Sequence record: NC_054928.1
Length of the DNA: 64,000 bases
Reading direction: 5' to 3' (one strand)
Source of the DNA: Escherichia phage vB_vPM_PD112
Part shown: positions 2,365 to 49,260 of the stretch, piece by piece
Numbering within the stretch: position 1 is the first letter of the stretch
Layout: each line of letters starts with the position of its first letter
Notes under the pieces: model-generated
Databases searched by the model: none
Told to the model about the DNA's origin: nothing
What the model saw: the letters and a program-made list of their open reading frames with translations, nothing else
Made by a program: the position numbers and the translations under genes

Positions 2365-5061
2365 TCAGCCAAACAGGAAGTCTAACGAAGCTTTTTCTTC
2401 ATAGTCCATGCCAGCCGATTCACACATACCCGCAAGCGGTTTAACAAACGATTTTTGGAACAAAGTTGAGTGGTCAATCCAAGATAGCACATCAGAACGA
2501 ATTTCTTTTGGAAGTTCTGTACCCGATGGCCAAGCAATGCACTTGTCACCAAATGGATTTCCCTCACGTAATGGAAGAACCATTACCTTATTTCCATCCA
2601 AAATTGGAGCTACACCTAGACCACTAACAGCTCGACGATAAGTTAGCACCCCACGAATATGGAACGGGCATTTAAATCCTGGCCAACCTTTATCATCATA
2701 TTTCGCTATATCATTCGCAGTTTTTACTTCAGCAATAACTTTATAGTCAAGTTGACGATATTCTTTCTCGAAGTTCTTGTAATATTCTTGGACAGACTCT
2801 TCACCTTCCTGAAGAATACGACGAATACTTTCTTCGAGAGCTTCTTGCACTGCTTTTGGTGTTGAACTCTGCTGAGTTTCCATACCCATGATTTTTAGAT
2901 GTGGTTCAGCAAATCGCTTATCTTCCATATCATAAACGTTCAGAGCATAACGTTTTTTCGCTTTCCAAAATCCACCGACACCCTTTGAACCAAGCGGAGG
3001 ACAAGAAATAGCTTCACGGTCCATATGCATCAGATGCTCGCGATTATTCATATAATCACATAACTCACGATATGCAACATCAATCATAGGTTCCATCTTT
3101 TTCTTACCGAACTGATTCATGAATTCAACTAAATCATTTTGTTCTTTAAAGCGGTCAAGACCTACTTTTTCAATAACTTTATCTACACAAACATATACCG
3201 AATCAGTATCACCCGCGGCGATGAAATCTTCATCATTAGTTCCGCATACTTTATTCAGATATTCGTTAATTTTACGAGCAATCCACTGAATACCAACTTG
3301 ACCAAAAATTGTGATAGCAGTAGCATTTCGCAAATCATAGTAACGGAAATGAATGTTACCAAGAGCACCATAAAGACTGTTAATAAGAATTTTACGGTTC
3401 AGCTGATTTGTGTTAGCAAGTGTAGCTGCTTTTTCACATTCTTCAATCAGACTATTGAGAACGGATTCGGTGTAATTCGATAGTTCATTTAAGAAATCAT
3501 CATTGAACTTAACATATCGTTCAACTTCTGGTTTAGTTGAACAAGACCCTGCGCCTTTCATAATAATCTTTTTAATAGCTTCGGCATTCATTTCTTCAGC
3601 GAACATTTTCTTTTTCCAATCTTTACGCTGGAAAAATACTTTAGCGATTTCCTTTGGAATGATACCTTCTTGATGCTTATCATACATCCATCCATTCGGA
3701 GAACAAGAATATTCATCACTCGGTTTAGGAGCTGTTCCTGCAATATATTCATGAATTGGATGAACTTTAAACTGCCCACGAATAGTCTCAGGACTAATGT
3801 TAACCTGACGAATAATGCTAGGATACAGAGACGTCAAGTCAAAACTCATAATATATCGACGAGCAATTGGTTTAGGTTCAAACACAAATGCACCCGGAAA
3901 ACTTTGTTTAACGTGCGAACCCTGTTGAGGAATAACCTTATGTTCACCTTTCAGTGAGTTAAAAATAATAGCGTCCCAAGTTTTAATAGGACTCATTACG
4001 CCAGAAAAAGGCATTTTAGCGTAATAAGACATACTTAAAACTAGATCGATAAACCCACGAATTTTATCAATTGCTTGAACTGATTCTACGTCAATGATGT
4101 TATAACTAATGTATCGTTGATGATTAGTCTCACGAAGTTTATTAATAGGACCATCATACGGTAATTTACCTTTTTTGGTTTCATGCTGAGCAACTGATTC
4201 CAAAGAGAATGACGGCAAATTAGTAAATGCGAATTTCTTATACAAATCTAAATAATCAAGAATAGATACGCCATCAATAGAATAAATTTCTTTGCTACCG
4301 TACACATTTTGAATTAGTTTAGATTTTACCCGACCGATTGGAGAGAAGCGTTTCATACTACGTTCGCCAAGAACCATTTTAACACGATTCATGATATACG
4401 GAACGTCAAATCCCTCAATATTCCAACCAGTAAAAATAGCAGGTCGTTTCTGTTCCCAGAGATTAATATATTCCATGAGCATATCACGCTCATTATCAAA
4501 TGGCATATAAATTACTCGGTCAAGAATTTCTTGAGGAACTTCATCACCACCTTCACAGTCAAGCTTAGCAGCTAACTTTGCATCCCATTTTGATACTGAA
4601 CCGTACATTGAATTCAAAAGGTCGAAAACATAAAAACGGTCATCAATTGAATCGTAATGAGTGATAGCATCAATTTCATATTCTGCTTTCATTGGGTCAG
4701 GAAATTTATCACCAGTAACCTCAATGTCACAGTTAGCTACACGAACAAATTTTCGGTCATAAACAATTTCTGAACCATATGTATCACTGATATAAGCGAG
4801 TTTAAAATCGTTCATACCGAGAGCTTCGAGACCGATGTCTTCCATTCGTTTCATCCAATCTCGTGCATCTTTCATTGATGGAAATTTTTGAGGAGCGCAA
4901 TTTTTACCATAAATGTCTTTGTATTTTGATTCTTCCTTACAGTGTCTAAACATAGTCGGAATATATTCTACTTCACGAGTACGTTCCTTTCCGTTTTCAT
5001 CAATATAACGTTCAACAATGTTATTTCCGACTGTTTCAATAGAGATATAAAATTCTTTCAT
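2365..5061 (-). CDS. 43: DNA polymerase (family B)
   Basis: 898 aa, T4 gp43 length and N-terminus MKEFYISIETVGNNIVERYIDENGKERT. Confidence 0.95.
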   Translation of the reverse strand: MKEFYISIETVGNNIVERYIDENGKERTREVEYIPTMFRHCKEESKYKDIYGKNCAPQKFPSMKDARDWMKRMEDIGLEALGMNDFKLAYISDTYGSEIVYDRKFVRVANCDIEVTGDKFPDPMKAEYEIDAITHYDSIDDRFYVFDLLNSMYGSVSKWDAKLAAKLDCEGGDEVPQEILDRVIYMPFDNERDMLMEYINLWEQKRPAIFTGWNIEGFDVPYIMNRVKMVLGERSMKRFSPIGRVKSKLIQNVYGSKEIYSIDGVSILDYLDLYKKFAFTNLPSFSLESVAQHETKKGKLPYDGPINKLRETNHQRYISYNIIDVESVQAIDKIRGFIDLVLSMSYYAKMPFSGVMSPIKTWDAIIFNSLKGEHKVIPQQGSHVKQSFPGAFVFEPKPIARRYIMSFDLTSLYPSIIRQVNISPETIRGQFKVHPIHEYIAGTAPKPSDEYSCSPNGWMYDKHQEGIIPKEIAKVFFQRKDWKKKMFAEEMNAEAIKKIIMKGAGSCSTKPEVERYVKFNDDFLNELSNYTESVLNSLIEECEKAATLANTNQLNRKILINSLYGALGNIHFRYYDLRNATAITIFGQVGIQWIARKINEYLNKVCGTNDEDFIAAGDTDSVYVCVDKVIEKVGLDRFKEQNDLVEFMNQFGKKKMEPMIDVAYRELCDYMNNREHLMHMDREAISCPPLGSKGVGGFWKAKKRYALNVYDMEDKRFAEPHLKIMGMETQQSSTPKAVQEALEESIRRILQEGEESVQEYYKNFEKEYRQLDYKVIAEVKTANDIAKYDDKGWPGFKCPFHIRGVLTYRRAVSGLGVAPILDGNKVMVLPLREGNPFGDKCIAWPSGTELPKEIRSDVLSWIDHSTLFQKSFVKPLAGMCESAGMDYEEKASLDFLFG

Positions 5062-43930: not shown

Positions 43931-44194
43931 TTATTTCATATTATTGAAATATTCTTCTGCGATTTCGTCGTTATCGTGGTAAACTTTAGAAGACAGTTTA
44001 ACATAACCTTCTGCTGTGAACATGTTAATCACAACCTTTACAGTATACCACTGACCATCTTCATTACCCATTACTGCGTAAGTTTCAAACATCGGATGGT
44101 CAGGACCGATAACTTTAATATCATTCACTGTACGACCGAAATCTTCTGAAACGCATTTCATAAAGAAGTTGAACAGCTCACCGTAATTATCCAT
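43931..44194 (-). CDS. hypothetical protein (e.8 position); probable ATG at 44194 behind GGAG RBS
   Basis: ORF; track version overlaps the promoter so start moved. Confidence 0.45.
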   Translation of the reverse strand: MDNYGELFNFFMKCVSEDFGRTVNDIKVIGPDHPMFETYAVMGNEDGQWYTVKVVINMFTAEGYVKLSSKVYHDNDEIAEEYFNNMK

Positions 44195-44234
44195 TTCATT
44201 CTCCAAGTTGTTTTCTGTATCAGTAGTTGATAGT

Positions 44235-44268
44235 TGTATAGTACCATGGAAGAACAAGGATGTAAACA
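44235..44268 (-). promoter_or_regulatory. T4-type early promoter
   Basis: Minus-strand read GTTTACatccttgttcttccatgGTACTATACA, near-identical to the one at 2215. Confidence 0.6.
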
Positions 44269-44403
44269 GTTTTGTGAAAAAATTTTTAAAAAGTTTTAGG
44301 GAATTCTAGGGCGGGGAGGGGCAATTAAAAGATAGGATAATATATTATAAAGGGTATAAACTAAATGATGCCTAGAGAGGTCCAGAAAGGCCTAGATACC
44401 AAA

Positions 44404-44427
44404 AGCCCCAACCTTTCGGCTGGGGCT
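44404..44427 (-). terminator. intrinsic terminator
   Basis: agccccaacctttcggctggggct hairpin plus U-run on minus strand. Confidence 0.6.
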
Positions 44428-44434
44428 AAGAATG

Positions 44435-44908
44435 TTATTTGATTTGTTTAGCAGACCAAATGCGGTCTTTGATAATTTTTTGGATGTCTTCAACATATTC
44501 AAGAGAGTGAACATGTGGGTTATCTTTGAAACTATAAGCACGAGCTAACTTTTGGCCTTCAGTTTTGATTACTAAAAGCTCTTTAAGGATAGCTTCATAT
44601 CTGGAGATAATTCCTTTAACGATATTTTTCTCTTGTGTGACTTTAGGATCTGCTTTAGGAGCAGGTTTACCCGAAGCCTTTGCAAAAGCAGCGCCAGTAG
44701 CAACTAAACTTTTCCAGGCCATACTAACTGCATTTCCCGTAAATCCTTCTGCTTTCATGTCGCGAGCAAACTGGAATCGTGATTCGTCAGAAGCATCTTT
44801 ATAGGAATATTTACCCGCTGCAATGGCTGCTTTTGCGACAGCTTGAATTTCGGTGCTAGATGCTTCATTTAACACCGCTTCATTTAAAAATTGAGCATAT
44901 GATTTCAT
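44435..44908 (-). CDS. internal-protein-like gene with capsid-targeting leader
   Basis: N-terminus MKSYAQFLNEA parallels the IP leader MKTYQEFI.EA; 157 aa, Ala/Lys-rich. Confidence 0.55.
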   Translation of the reverse strand: MKSYAQFLNEAVLNEASSTEIQAVAKAAIAAGKYSYKDASDESRFQFARDMKAEGFTGNAVSMAWKSLVATGAAFAKASGKPAPKADPKVTQEKNIVKGIISRYEAILKELLVIKTEGQKLARAYSFKDNPHVHSLEYVEDIQKIIKDRIWSAKQIK

Positions 44909-44960
44909 CTTATTTCCTGTTCTAATTCGTGGATTTAATATATTATATTTATACTAAAAA

Positions 44961-44982
44961 GCCCCAACCTTTCGGTCGGGGC
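44961..44982 (-). terminator. intrinsic terminator downstream of the tRNA/stable RNA cluster
   Basis: gccccaacctttcggtcggggc hairpin plus U-run on minus strand; copy of the 44404 hairpin. Confidence 0.6.
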
Positions 44983-45029
44983 TAAGCCTTGCGGCAACCT
45001 TGTAGGGGTTCCACCTGCTAAGGCAAGTG

Positions 45030-45300
45030 TTTGTACGAAACGCCGGGATTCGAACCCGGTTATTAAGTAGTTGACGCTACTCAATATTTTTAAAAGGCCA
45101 TATCTCGACCATATCCGAACGTTCCGTCAAAAACGCTACTCGGCTTACGGCAAAGATATTTCCTCGAATCGATAATTTGGTGCGCCGTTTCTGCTGTGAT
45201 GTAAGAGGGCATCAACAAATCATAAAGATTTATTAACACAATTCCTTACCCAGGGAACATCAGTCCGACGACTTACCGGTAGCGACCCGGTTTCTTGTTT
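45030..45300 (-). ncRNA. stable small RNA region (T4 species 1/2-like RNAs); boundaries approximate
   Basis: No ORF; tRNA-like T-arm GGTTCGAATCC and long complementary stems between the terminator and tRNA-Arg. Confidence 0.35.
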
Positions 45301-45377
45301 GGTCGAGGCAGAAGGATTCTAACCTTCAACCAACGGATTAGAAATCCGTTGCTCTATACAATTGAGCTATGCCCCGT
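45301..45377 (-). tRNA. tRNA-Arg (anticodon UCU)
   Basis: Hand-folded cloverleaf on minus strand, 7 bp acceptor stem, CCA encoded. Confidence 0.7.
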
Positions 45378-45379
45378 AA

Positions 45380-46045
45380 TTAAAATTTCATTTTTCGACC
45401 TTTAAACCATCCTTCTGGAATTGGGTCAGTTTTCTTAATACGTTTAGAAACTTTTTCATCTAATGAATGAATCCACATCATGCCAAATTGGGAATTCTTT
45501 TCACCTTGTTGGTGTTTATTTCTGGCGTGAGATTCTTTCATTTTATTAATAGTTTCAGGAGTATGATGCTTATTTAAAAATCTGCTATTATTTAAAAATT
45601 TTTCCCTGTATTCAGGAGTTGACCACAAGCGTTTAAATACATTTGAACCATTTTTACGATATTTTTCTTGAAGTAAAATATCATTTTTAAAACGTGACTT
45701 AAACGATTTAGCTCCTTTTAAACTAGCGTCTTTCTTCTGATTTAGCATCTCAGGAATATTTATATGATCCCATCCACCTTCACCGCCAAGTTTTAAATTA
45801 TACACATCAGGTCTATTTAAAAACTCTTCTGTGACAATATTTTTCTCGGCTTCAAGCATAGATTCTTTATCGTCAAAATATTCTAATATTTCTTTAGAAA
45901 AATTTTCTATACCATACCTGTCTTGGGCTCTTTTTAATAATTTACCAGAACCCATATATCCATCATCTAAATTTTCGGTAGAATGCACACCAATATAAAT
46001 TTTATTATTAATTTTATTTGTTATTTTATAAGCGTAATGGAACAT
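45380..46045 (-). CDS. segB: GIY-YIG homing endonuclease SegB
   Basis: 221 aa; YKITNKINNKIYIGVHST...GYMGSG; inside the tRNA cluster as in T4. Confidence 0.85.
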   Translation of the reverse strand: MFHYAYKITNKINNKIYIGVHSTENLDDGYMGSGKLLKRAQDRYGIENFSKEILEYFDDKESMLEAEKNIVTEEFLNRPDVYNLKLGGEGGWDHINIPEMLNQKKDASLKGAKSFKSRFKNDILLQEKYRKNGSNVFKRLWSTPEYREKFLNNSRFLNKHHTPETINKMKESHARNKHQQGEKNSQFGMMWIHSLDEKVSKRIKKTDPIPEGWFKGRKMKF

Positions 46046-46086
46046 AAATATCTCCTATTTCTAAGAGTATTTATGTTCCCAAAATA

Positions 46087-46160
46087 TGACCCAGACCAGA
46101 TTCGAACTGATAACCTTTCCCTTATGAGGGGACTGCTGCTAACCATTGAGCTACAGGGCC
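46087..46160 (-). tRNA. tRNA-Ile (anticodon CAU)
   Basis: Hand-folded cloverleaf; T-loop TTCGAAT; anticodon loop CTCATAA. Confidence 0.6.
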
Positions 46161-46166
46161 TTGATA

Positions 46167-46239
46167 TGCTGATTGACGGAATCGAACCGCCGACCTTCTC
46201 ATTACAAGTGAGTTGCTCTACCTACTGAGCTAAATCAGC
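46167..46239 (-). tRNA. tRNA-Thr (anticodon UGU)
   Basis: Hand-folded cloverleaf; anticodon loop CTTGTAA. Confidence 0.7.
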
Positions 46240-46246
46240 GAAATTA

Positions 46247-46333
46247 CGGAGGCGATAGGATTTGAACCTATGAGTCGCCGGAGCGACTGCCGGTTTTCAA
46301 GACCGGTGCATTAAACCACTCTGCCACGCCTCC
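46247..46333 (-). tRNA. tRNA-Ser (anticodon UGA), long variable arm
   Basis: Hand-folded; anticodon loop CTTGAAA; 87 nt. Confidence 0.7.
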
Positions 46334-46335
46334 AG

Positions 46336-46409
46336 TCTCCGTGGCAGGATTTGAACCTACGACATTCTGCTCCCAAAGCAGACGCTCTACCAAACTGAGC
46401 TACACGGAG
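46336..46409 (-). tRNA. tRNA-Pro (anticodon UGG)
   Basis: Hand-folded; anticodon loop TTTGGGA. Confidence 0.7.
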
Positions 46410-46421
46410 TAAATTAAATTT

Positions 46422-46493
<72 letters not shown>

Positions 46494-46499
46494 AAACTT

Positions 46500-46586
46500 T
46501 GGTACGAGAAGTGGGACTCGAACCCACAAGGAAATCATTCCGCAGCATTTTAAGTGCTGTGCCTTTACCAATTTGACCATTCTCGC
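46500..46586 (-). tRNA. tRNA-Leu (anticodon UAA), long variable arm, CCA encoded
   Basis: Hand-folded; anticodon loop CTTAAAA. Confidence 0.7.
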
Positions 46587-46592
46587 TCTATA

Positions 46593-47201
46593 TTATTTAT
46601 TACGTGAAAAAGATTGTTCTATCAATTCTGGACACTTTCGTTCTATCCATTTTCTAGCTTTTTGTGGGCTTATACCTATTATTTTAGCAGCTTTACTAAC
46701 CCATCCAAATTTAGAATAATCGATTTTAACTAATTCTTCGTAAATTTCATCAGTTAAAATCTTTTCATTAATATTTACCAGTAAATGATATAATTTATTA
46801 TCATTAGCAATTTTAATGAATCTTTTATAGTTTCCGCCTTTACTTAAACCTAATGAAGTAATTGCAGATGATATAGTAGCCGAATTTAATAGTGCGTTTA
46901 AAATTTCTTCATCACTAACATTATAACGCTTTTTATTATTTTTAATATTTTTACCAGCAAAAGTATCAGTTTGCGAATGGCAATTTGGACATAATAATCT
47001 TAAATTTGATTTAAGATGATTTTTGTTATTTCCATCAATATGGTCTAATTGCAGAACAATATGCTTATTTTGCCATTTTGAAATTTTACAAATTGCGCAC
47101 TCATATGGAAAAATATTTTCTTTTATTATTTTATCTTTCAGCTTTCCTGTACTAAAATTTGGATGTTTTCCTTCAAAAATTTCAGCTAATTTAGTATCCA
47201 T
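46593..47201 (-). CDS. HNH homing endonuclease (Mob-like); probable ATG at 47201
   Basis: HNH motif LQLDHIDGNNKNHLKSNLRLLCPNCH; ends 7 nt from tRNA-Leu. Confidence 0.65.
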   Translation of the reverse strand: MDTKLAEIFEGKHPNFSTGKLKDKIIKENIFPYECAICKISKWQNKHIVLQLDHIDGNNKNHLKSNLRLLCPNCHSQTDTFAGKNIKNNKKRYNVSDEEILNALLNSATISSAITSLGLSKGGNYKRFIKIANDNKLYHLLVNINEKILTDEIYEELVKIDYSKFGWVSKAAKIIGISPQKARKWIERKCPELIEQSFSRNK

Positions 47202-47311
47202 AATATGATTCCCAATTATTAACAAAGGCTCTCAAGCAAGAACCCTTGATGATAGAGGGTATTAATCAGTGCGATATGAGTTAATAATAACAAATAATTC
47301 TTAAAGCATAT

Positions 47312-47599
47312 TTACCATTTATAATAATACATATTTACGATGCATTCAAGACCCAAAGGATTCTTGAAAATATCATATTCAAGAGGACCTTTTTCCGTTT
47401 CAATAAAGAAATCAAAATTTACTGTATTAAATTTACGGTCTTCCTTCACTAATTTAACTTGAGAAGATGAACGATCAATGTAAACCTTTTCAACTTCAAA
47501 ACATGTTAAAATGCCATAATCATCAATCAAGACTTTAGCTGCTTCTTGATCATATTTATATCCATTTTCAATGGATGATACTTTCGCATAAAGAATCAT
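47312..47599 (-). CDS. hypothetical protein
   Basis: 95 aa ORF. Confidence 0.4.
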   Translation of the reverse strand: MILYAKVSSIENGYKYDQEAAKVLIDDYGILTCFEVEKVYIDRSSSQVKLVKEDRKFNTVNFDFFIETEKGPLEYDIFKNPLGLECIVNMYYYKW

Positions 47600-47601
47600 T
47601 A

Positions 47602-47985
47602 TCAGCCTTCATCAACAATAGTGTGAGTATGGGCATTTACGATTTGCCACCAGTCAAAACTATCGCCAAATCGTTTTGATTTATTGTCTTCAATAATTTG
47701 GCGTAATTCATCTTCTGTTTCAGCATACGCAATCAAATCATCATATCCACCACGAGGATAATAATTATCACCTGCAAAAAGTAAAAAGTTTGGTTTAATG
47801 TTATTGAACTCTTCAAGAGTAATAACTTTTCCTGACGGTTGAACAATCTCTACATATTTATATCCCAATTTTTGAGCAGCATCTACTGCTTCAAGCAGGG
47901 TATCATGAGCCCATCCAATTTGGCAATCTGGCTTTTCAGATGGATTAGCCTGATAATCCGCGTACACTTTATACATTCTATTCAC
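47602..47985 (-). CDS. hypothetical protein
   Basis: 127 aa ORF. Confidence 0.45.
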   Translation of the reverse strand: MNRMYKVYADYQANPSEKPDCQIGWAHDTLLEAVDAAQKLGYKYVEIVQPSGKVITLEEFNNIKPNFLLFAGDNYYPRGGYDDLIAYAETEDELRQIIEDNKSKRFGDSFDWWQIVNAHTHTIVDEG

Positions 47986-48163
47986 CTTTAGAAATTTTAT
48001 CCATAACGATAGCGATTAAACCAATTAAAAATGCTACTACAAGTGAAAAAACATTTTCTGCTGTAGTCAATAATCCGCATATAAATCCAACAAACATTGA
48101 AAAACTAAAAGCGGAAACAGAAATTGCAATAGCAACATTTCGAATTAATTCACAACGTTTCAT
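47978..48163 (-). CDS. small membrane protein
   Basis: 61 aa, hydrophobic. Confidence 0.4.
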   Translation of the reverse strand: MKRCELIRNVAIAISVSAFSFSMFVGFICGLLTTAENVFSLVVAFLIGLIAIVMDKISKGE

Positions 48164-48187
48164 TTTATTCTCCTCAGTAGTTGATAG

Positions 48188-48221
48188 GGTAATAGTATCA
48201 CAACTAAAACCCTATGTAAAC
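48188..48221 (-). promoter_or_regulatory. T4-type early promoter
   Basis: Minus-strand read GTTTACAtagggttttagttgtgaTACTATTACC. Confidence 0.55.
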
Positions 48222-48233
48222 AACTTTGTGAAA

Positions 48234-48491
48234 TTATTTTAAATCTTCTAATCGTTTCTTCATCTTAGAACCGTTCTTAGCGATTTCGCCTGCATCAGAG
48301 CATAATGCTAAAAGCGCTTTAACTTTAGTTTGGTCTCCTTTAAAAGATGAAGGATCGACTGCAGCAGCAAGTTCTTTAATACGAGAGAAAAGACGCTCAG
48401 CTTCAGCTAAAGCCATTCCAAGCTTTACTTCCATACCATGAGAAGATTCAGTAATAGTAGTTTTTGTAGCAAACTCTTTGAAAGTTTTCAT
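48234..48491 (-). CDS. internal protein at the ipI locus (leader MKTFKEF)
   Basis: 85 aa; IP-type leader; position immediately before 57B as for T4 ipI. Confidence 0.6.
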   Translation of the reverse strand: MKTFKEFATKTTITESSHGMEVKLGMALAEAERLFSRIKELAAAVDPSSFKGDQTKVKALLALCSDAGEIAKNGSKMKKRLEDLK

Positions 48492-48517
48492 TTTATTTTC
48501 CTAATTAATTTTGATGA

Positions 48518-48551
48518 GATAATAGTATCACTACCTCATCAACGTGTAAAC
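48518..48551 (-). promoter_or_regulatory. T4-type early promoter
   Basis: Minus-strand read GTTTACAcgttgatgaggtagtgaTACTATTATC. Confidence 0.55.
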
Positions 48552-48563
48552 AACTTTGTGAAA

Positions 48564-49260
<697 letters not shown>

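Follow-up and report, generated by a model that had tools for sequence, protein, structure and literature searches.

Homing endonuclease genes lodged among phage transfer RNA (tRNA) genes are known from several systems. SegB of phage T4 preferentially cuts inside tRNA-Asn of T2L, a gene that is missing from T4 at the segB place; when T4 is crossed with T2L, SegB promotes the inheritance of its own gene, and about 1.25 kilobases (kb) of T2L tRNA genes are excluded (PMC2330249). HNH homing endonuclease genes have been described in tRNA arrays as well, namely in cyanobacterial L-arrays (PMC8421152), in mycobacterial clusters (PMC6582537) and also in phages, and Hef and SegH are reported to stand in place of mobE and mobC at their loci (title of PMC1275590). 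Here we analyse 64,000 nucleotides (nt) of Escherichia phage vB_vPM_PD112 (NC_054928.1), hereafter the window, which form part of a Tequatrovirus (T4-like) genome and contain its tRNA operon, which is encoded on the minus strand and corresponds by synteny to 66-78 kb of T4. At the head of this operon the window carries a gene for a predicted HNH homing endonuclease, and our analysis establishes that this gene stands in the place of tRNA-Gln. As a whole explanation we consider it probable that a free-standing HNH homing endonuclease gene, related to HegA/F-TflIV of phage T5, replaced tRNA-Gln and homes into the tRNA-Gln allele; homing itself, that is cleavage of this allele, is the part that we infer.

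An earlier note, made by reading this DNA, had folded seven tRNAs (Leu, Gly, Pro, Ser, Thr, Ile and Arg), found none upstream of tRNA-Leu where T4 has tRNA-Gln, and placed there an intact HNH gene instead; all of these observations are borne out. On all 64 kb, ARAGORN detects exactly seven tRNAs (Arg, Ile, Thr, Ser, Pro, Gly and Leu), every one of them on the minus strand, and no tRNA-Gln. The Rfam tRNA covariance model, run on 44000-48600 with an E-value (E) <=1, returns the same seven and none in 46587-48600, and T4 tRNA-Gln as a BLASTN query with word size 7 gives in the whole window only a weak generic 32-nt match inside tRNA-Leu. In T4, tRNA-Gln is found at the homologous place, 1 nt upstream of tRNA-Leu. 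As for the distance of 7 nt that the earlier note gave between the end of the HNH gene and tRNA-Leu, the adjacency stands, while the 7 is the difference of the coordinates and 6 nt actually lie between them.

The alignment of the window with T4 and slur03 shows that the two arrangements differ by a precise swap (coordinates in Table 1). From trna.2 across the intergenic leader of 97 nt and as far as nt 9 of tRNA-Gln, the window is nearly identical to T4; it then diverges, and identity to T4 restarts exactly at nt 1 of tRNA-Leu (GCGAGAA). Between these points T4 has 65 nt, from nt 10 of tRNA-Gln to its 3' end plus the 1-nt spacer, versus 619 nt in the window, made up of TATT, a 609-nt open reading frame (ORF) and TATAGA; outside the removed 65 nt the two alleles are identical. 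What remains of tRNA-Gln is its 5' acceptor strand with nt 8-9, left without a pairing partner. Of the ten genomes with the HNH gene (HNH+) that we compared, four have T and six have C at position 8 of this relic, the universal U8. An unpaired stub with a freely varying U8 is as expected of a dead remnant, so tRNA-Gln was there first. The GGGA of the relic is the sole Shine-Dalgarno-like element before the HNH start codon. As to the left junction, a candidate microhomology, TAATTGG(G)AAT, is seen between the 5' untranslated region of the cassette in the loci L005 and L006, which carry relatives of the HNH gene (TAATTGGAAT), and the tRNA-Gln 5' end (TAATTGGGAAT); this origin is suggestive and unproven. 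On the whole, we hold with high confidence that tRNA-Gln was replaced by the HNH cassette.

We then present an overall view of the two alleles in related phages. The interval between the flanking anchors is 622 nt in all ten HNH+ loci (the window, slur03, MLF4, EC.W14-2, pSe_SNUABM_01, JEP6, Ozark, ACG-C40, HY03 and teqhad) versus 68 nt in all eight loci lacking the gene (HNH-; T4, wV7, RB5, G29, Pinarejo, RB18, slur13 and PYps11T), and a 168-kb metagenome contig is a further public copy with the same relic junction. Since the junctions are identical in all 12 copies read, the cassettes go back to one ancestral event. In INPHARED, 62 records have the HNH gene at >=95% amino-acid identity, all of them full-length matches, and about 441 records have the T4-type tRNA-Gln arrangement, with no record having both, or neither, seen among the matches listed. 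The gene is thus present in about 12% of Tequatrovirus records and absent from about 88%; T2L, for example, carries tRNA-Gln. A direct pattern search of IMG/VR, which holds almost no Tequatrovirus, yielded three matches to the tRNA-Gln/tRNA-Leu junction and none to the HNH junction, and detected no intermediate allele in which tRNA-Gln is followed by the HNH start; the only metagenome match in the search for such an allele carried the usual relic junction. Presence and absence at one fixed locus, with identical junctions among close genomes, is the pattern that marks a free-standing homing endonuclease gene, and it is what the Tequatroviruses display. The link that the earlier note had suggested between an insertion and the loss or replacement of a tRNA gene is supported by the precise swap against T4 and by the strict coupling of HNH presence with tRNA-Gln absence; going beyond that note, the arrangement is a common allele and not peculiar to the window genome, and the cluster also contains segB, another homing endonuclease gene. 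The HNH- Tequatroviruses (L001, L015-L021; e.g. L016 2060-2132) are themselves shown to have two alleles of tRNA-Gln(UUG), with a fully compensatory swap of the 5-base-pair (bp) anticodon stem, which is AUAGC/GCUAG in T4 and wV7 and CUGGA/UCCAG in RB5, G29, RB18, slur13, Pinarejo and PYps11T, the remainder being identical.

The longest form of the ORF spans 46593-47225 on the minus strand and begins with TTG, but the likely start is the ATG at 47201, giving the 202 amino acids (aa) used in the annotation of slur03, ACG-C40 and other relatives. The encoded protein matches phrog_14736 'HNH endonuclease' of PHROG from end to end (E 5e-124), phrog_10822 at 2.5e-29 and several further HNH families of that database, as well as the homing-endonuclease model 'HEase' of PADLOC (2.8e-19); a sequence search of the PDB with the family profile gives no match. 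When the protein is aligned with eight relatives at 38-69% identity, D53-H54, N66 and H75 are invariant, and so are the zinc ligands C35, C38, C71 and C74. These residues supply the general-base His, the structural Asn and the metal-binding His of an HNH beta-beta-alpha-metal core, together with the flanking CxxC...CxxC zinc pair of the McrA/colicin-like subclass. The zinc-bound core is N-terminal, at about residues 30-80, where residues 51-54 and 67-70 form a beta hairpin in the AlphaFold model and residues 72-76 the helix that comes next; the C-terminal half is helical in this model (predicted local distance difference test, pLDDT, 80; predicted template modelling score, pTM, 0.39) and contains the conserved motif GWVSKAxKIxGISPQKxRKW, helix-turn-helix-like in look. 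By its family matches and conserved residues, the 202-aa protein is an HNH nuclease.

Its closest named relative is HegA/F-TflIV of phage T5, with 35% identity over 170 aa (BLASTP, residues 16-184, E 2e-22). The similarity covers the HNH core and the C-terminal helix-turn-helix-like motif, and hegA, too, is found among tRNA genes, 24 nt after tRNA-Ile2 and in the same orientation as the tRNAs. In contrast, the T5 protein alone has an N-terminal extension of ~55 aa and lacks ~25 middle residues, and it belongs to another phage family with other neighbouring tRNAs. The protein belongs, distantly, with the T5 HegA/F-TflIV-like HNH endonucleases. In GenBank the ORF is labelled 'HNH endonuclease', 'homing endonuclease' or 'F-TflIV'/'F-TflIV-like', and the similarity to T5 TflIV is already remarked in the records of ACG-C40, BP32 and Ec_O157kw. 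We found no paper on this gene or on the replacement of tRNA-Gln, and the gene is mentioned neither in the SegB paper (PMC2330249) nor in the 2026 SegB/Septu paper (PMC13096335).

It is of interest whether the nuclease still drives the spread of its cassette. The tRNA-Gln gene may have been replaced once, with the cassette being passed on afterwards by vertical descent or by ordinary T4 recombination as a passive passenger; a useless ORF, however, should decay. In the ten cassettes all 16 variable ORF sites are synonymous, where 34% of the possible transitions in the ORF are synonymous and the chance probability for 16 of 16 is about 4e-8; the catalytic residues are intact, and no truncated copy occurs among the 62 records. 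The data establish that the ORF is intact and under strong purifying selection. Mean pairwise diversity in the ten genomes is about 4-fold lower in the cassette (1.1%, at most 2.1%) than in the adjacent trna.2 (4.4%, at most 8.3%), which likewise speaks against a mere passenger. The ten genomes span at least nine species of Tequatrovirus as defined by the International Committee on Taxonomy of Viruses (ICTV), and several flanking haplotypes surround the cassette, each also found in HNH- genomes: teqhad and MLF4 share with HNH- RB18 an additional 170-aa ORF between trna.2 and the cassette, and the flanks of slur03 resemble those of HNH- slur13. The low diversity on several backgrounds shows that the cassette is younger than its surroundings and was moved by homologous exchange, and its patchy spread, established over at least nine species, speaks for a mobile element that is active. 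We consider it likely that the nuclease drives this spread.

We propose the following course of events, of which the first step is shown by the alignments: one ancestral recombination, probably illegitimate, put the 619-nt cassette in place of 65 nt. The ORF appears to have no promoter of its own and to be placed behind the conserved leader and promoter of the operon, so that it should be the first cistron of the tRNA precursor, transcribed from the operon's promoter through its leader. The candidate promoter, of the MotA-dependent middle type of T4, was read by eye as a good match to the published consensus and is identical upstream of T4 tRNA-Gln; a scan for sigma-70 promoters and terminators gives nothing above background, the sigma-70 scan being one that does not model MotA promoters. 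The leader and start region have a fold z-score of -2.1, and the GGG of the relic can pair with an upstream CCC, which is too weak to claim translational control. The 3' end of the HNH messenger RNA would come from cleavage by ribonuclease P (RNase P) at tRNA-Leu, 6 nt past the stop codon. When a relative with the tRNA-Gln allele infects the same cell, the enzyme may then cut or nick this allele, either within the 65 nt missing from the HNH+ genome or beside them. Because the alleles are identical outside these 65 nt, an allele-specific target must involve nt 10-73 of tRNA-Gln or the junctions, and the deletion would make a genome with the cassette immune. Repair with the HNH+ genome as template would copy the cassette and delete tRNA-Gln, by the logic that crosses of T4 with T2L have demonstrated for SegB and tRNA-Asn.

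By analogy, then, the HNH gene may work like segB. Both are free-standing homing endonuclease genes of the same tRNA operon in the place of relatives' tRNA genes; homing of SegB removes the tRNA genes of the rival, and SegB prefers to cut within one of the genes that it displaces, T2L tRNA-Asn. They differ in fold (GIY-YIG versus HNH) and in operon position, and activity and homing have been experimentally shown for SegB, whereas for the HNH enzyme both are predicted. In accordance with this difference, Pfam finds no GIY-YIG domain in the protein of 46593-47201, which is not a member of the SegB family. The relatives without segB carry tRNA-Tyr, tRNA-Asn and, in most of them, tRNA-His at the segB place. 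In RB18 (NC_054906, L019) a segB-like GIY-YIG ORF lies at 1238-1888 between tRNA-Ser and tRNA-Gly, where other Tequatroviruses carry tRNA-Pro; the RB18 cluster has no tRNA-Pro, which makes three cases in this operon where a homing endonuclease gene occupies the place of tRNA genes. The cyanobacterial and mycobacterial arrays (PMC8421152, PMC6582537) share with our locus the general association of HNH genes with tRNA arrays; unlike here, neither the replacement of a specific tRNA nor a tight abutment to a tRNA 5' end is described there. T4 MobA-E and Hef are also free-standing HNH homing endonucleases whose genes show presence/absence polymorphism in T-even phages, but they are located at other loci and their sequence similarity to the HNH protein is undetectable. 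Membership in the T4 Mob family was considered and rejected: tblastn at E<=1e-3 matched only 83 'Escherichia' records, against ~460 Escherichia phage records in the DNA searches with the tRNA region, and since these ~460 T4-like genomes are expected to carry mob genes, the protein has no detectable Mob similarity, as judged from these counts.

Related genes are found at tRNA clusters well outside the Tequatroviruses read here. In uncultured T4-like contigs, the proteins P0002-P0004, 68% and 58% identical to the HNH protein, are encoded at the syntenic place, where the tRNA cluster begins after gp2, gp3, the deoxynucleoside monophosphate (dNMP) kinase, 57A, 57B and trna.4/.3/.2-like genes. In the locus L004 the 68%-identical relative starts 14 nt after the end of an intact tRNA-Gln(UUG), no tRNA-Gln occurs near the relative in L005 and L006, and in two IMG/VR loci (L022 and L056) more distant full-length relatives again come after tRNA-Gln(UUG). 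We sampled 76 distinct IMG/VR loci encoding this HNH domain, and 67 of them have tRNAs within 1.5 kb; 278 of the 321 tRNAs in these loci are co-oriented with the HNH gene. In 26 of the 76 the 5' end of a tRNA lies within -40 to +20 nt of the HNH stop, and 14 of these 26 abutting tRNAs are tRNA-Leu, compared with a background of 17%, for which the binomial p of about 3e-5 is indicative only because the loci are not independent. Abutting tRNA-Leu is thus a habit of this HNH clade. Since the T4-type tRNA-Gln and tRNA-Leu are 1 nt apart, insertion 3' of Gln and insertion 5' of Leu are one and the same site.

Some further observations were made in these loci. Most of the distant relatives, in the IMG/VR loci L022-L101, have a ~70-aa N-terminal extension and are tightly wedged between two tRNA genes, and in L033, L039, L043 and L050 the HNH ORF extends 10 nt into the downstream tRNA-Leu. 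Between the relative in L004 and tRNA-Met there are ~400 nt of GC-richer non-coding DNA (4604-5009), starting 3 nt past the stop with GCGAGAC, which is like a tRNA-Leu 5' end; no tRNA is called there and Rfam has no match, and the stretch may represent a degenerated tRNA-Leu or a structured RNA of unknown kind. L005 and L006 have, right after the HNH stop (4610-4715 in both), a ~105-nt non-coding element that is almost identical in the two though the coding DNA differs, for which Rfam has no family. Both loci also have at 3700-3730, just upstream of a 57-aa DUF1328 ORF, a T-arm/acceptor-like sequence (GGTTCGAATCC...), which neither ARAGORN nor Rfam calls as a tRNA and which may be a tRNA fragment or a tRNA-like end.

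Towards active, tRNA-Gln-directed homing we lean only slightly, and several points weigh against it. No flanking single-nucleotide polymorphism (SNP) is diagnostic for the HNH gene among the ten HNH+ and eight HNH- loci, and no co-conversion tract is visible, the closest pair of opposite state (ACG-C40 and G29) differing evenly on both sides; general recombination could therefore move the cassette without the nuclease, and the very high general recombination of T4 could give the same picture. These points, together with the presence of the gene in only about 12% of the records, are what favours the passive passenger, which in view of the selection on the ORF and the low diversity of the cassette we regard as unlikely. 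On the enzyme itself, the Pfam HNH profile PF01844 matches at E 0.005 with 17.3 bits, below the gathering cutoff of 21.4, and Foldseek finds no significant whole-chain match of the AlphaFold model in the PDB. Its best local fold matches, non-significant, are the HNH domains of ScoMcrA, EcoKMcrA, Cap5 and Gme, all of McrA type; as the structural match is only local and weak, nothing is gained from it beyond the motif analysis. On the target, which is deduced solely from what the HNH+ allele lacks, some phage HNH enzymes such as I-HmuI and MobE nick at a distance or cut both alleles. The L004 relative coexists with tRNA-Gln, so that tRNA-Gln itself is not necessarily the target; the site may be the junction and not the tRNA body. 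Promoter use and formation of the 3' end by RNase P, finally, are both predictions from the sequence.

An alternative is that the nuclease is kept for damaging the tRNA regions of co-infecting phages (marker exclusion) or for another phage function, with self-copying being secondary. Purifying selection on the ORF fits such a benefit, as do the persistent tie of the clade to tRNA arrays in many unrelated phages and the beneficial side effect reported for SegB (PMC13096335). The gene, however, is not core, given that some 88% of Tequatrovirus records do without it, no evidence exists for any target, and this explanation overlaps with homing rather than excluding it; we rate it as improbable. 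The reverse polarity, in which the HNH allele came first and the T4 lineage acquired tRNA-Gln afterwards by insertion, has nothing specific in its favour except that related HNH genes are old residents of the locus in other T4-like lineages. It is rejected as very improbable, since the HNH+ genomes keep the 5' acceptor strand and nt 8-9 of tRNA-Gln without a partner and with U8 free to vary, since tRNA-Gln is the majority allele and has two diverged forms, and since a distant T4-like contig has tRNA-Gln at this locus too. That a divergent tRNA-Gln is present and was missed by the scans is hardly conceivable and rejected, as ARAGORN, Rfam and BLASTN are all negative and a conserved ORF fills the interval.

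Table 1. Features at the head of the tRNA operon and around segB in the window (positions in the 64,000 nt)
Feature	Position	Strand	Basis and remarks
tRNA-Arg	45300-45376	-	ARAGORN
segB (GIY-YIG homing endonuclease)	45380-46045	-	Between tRNA-Arg and tRNA-Ile, as in T4; PF01541 E 1.8e-5
tRNA-Ile	46087-46160	-	ARAGORN label Met-CAT; homologue of the T4 gene annotated tRNA-Ile
tRNA-Leu(UAA), resident T4-type gene	46500-46586	-	ARAGORN, Rfam, T4 alignment; 5' end is the downstream junction of the cassette
Spacer TATAGA, 6 nt, HNH stop to tRNA-Leu nt 1	46587-46592	-	Polymorphic in HNH+ genomes (TATAAC in others)
Predicted HNH homing endonuclease ORF, 202 aa, 609 nt	46593-47201	-	ATG 47201-47199, TAA 46595-46593; HNH matches and annotation of relatives
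Spacer TATT, 4 nt, tRNA-Gln relic to ATG	47202-47205	-	Sequence and T4 alignment
tRNA-Gln relic, first 9 nt, window TGGGAATCA versus T4 TGGGAATTA	47206-47214	-	T4 alignment
Leader of the tRNA operon transcript, common to T4; 11-bp hairpin at 47223-47248	47215-47277	-	T4 alignment; fold z -2.1, weak
Candidate T4 middle (MotA-dependent) promoter	47284-47308	-	MotA box TGCTTTA 47308-47302, 12-nt spacer, -10 TATTAT 47289-47284
trna.2 homologue, upstream flank common to T4	47312-47599	-	ORF list, T4 comparison, PHROG

Around the cassette, the tRNA-Leu of the window differs from that of T4 only by C72->T, which gives a G1.U72 first pair; this change and a 1-nt insertion in the spacer between Leu and Gly (window 46499-46503) are common to pSe_SNUABM_01 and HY03 and not to the other HNH+ or HNH- genomes. 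After tRNA-Arg come rnaC and rnaD, and beyond rnaC there is a 157-aa ORF (44435-44908; phrog_2280, RB32ORF133c-like) where T4 has no gene. On the other side, an 85-aa ORF (48234-48491) of the PHROG 'internal head protein' family (phrog_3499, T6 Ip5-like) lies where T4 carries ipI. These two ORFs are ordinary T-even polymorphisms.

For annotation, the swap accounts for the lack of tRNA-Gln in about 12% of the genomes of Tequatrovirus. The question of the tRNA repertoire has gained relevance since phage tRNAs were found to counteract host defences that cleave tRNAs, as tRNA-Tyr does against Septu (PMC13096335). Having both segB and the HNH gene, this phage keeps 7 of the 11 tRNAs of relatives that are free of both. 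It is plausible, and would be moderately interesting if the target of the enzyme were shown, that homing endonuclease genes systematically erode phage tRNA sets, with 4 of 11 lost here to two genes and the tRNA-Pro of RB18 to a segB-like gene. If the enzyme were inactive or non-specific, the locus would be one more polymorphic homing endonuclease insertion in T-even phages; to a specialist, an uncharacterised mobile nuclease gene eroding a phage tRNA set would look neat but expected. A further reading, possible but doubtful, is that this HNH lineage is a tRNA-junction-specific gene drive that recognises the tRNA-Gln/tRNA-Leu boundary, which is hard for the phage to mutate, inserts a copy of itself while deleting tRNA-Gln, and forms together with SegB-type elements a main force setting the tRNA sets of T4-like phages. 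The ending of the clade's genes near the tRNA-Leu 5' end would then reflect target recognition and not safe-harbour insertion, and selfish nucleases would work directly against the functions of phage tRNAs in anti-defence and in translation. If the enzyme does home into tRNA-Gln, it would add to the site-specific nucleases a new and compact one, of 202 aa, whose natural target is defined, and two unrelated homing endonucleases, SegB and the HNH enzyme, would act in one small operon, each erasing different tRNA genes of the rival; the operon would then offer a simple natural setting for studying the effect of selfish nucleases on the tRNA repertoires of phages.

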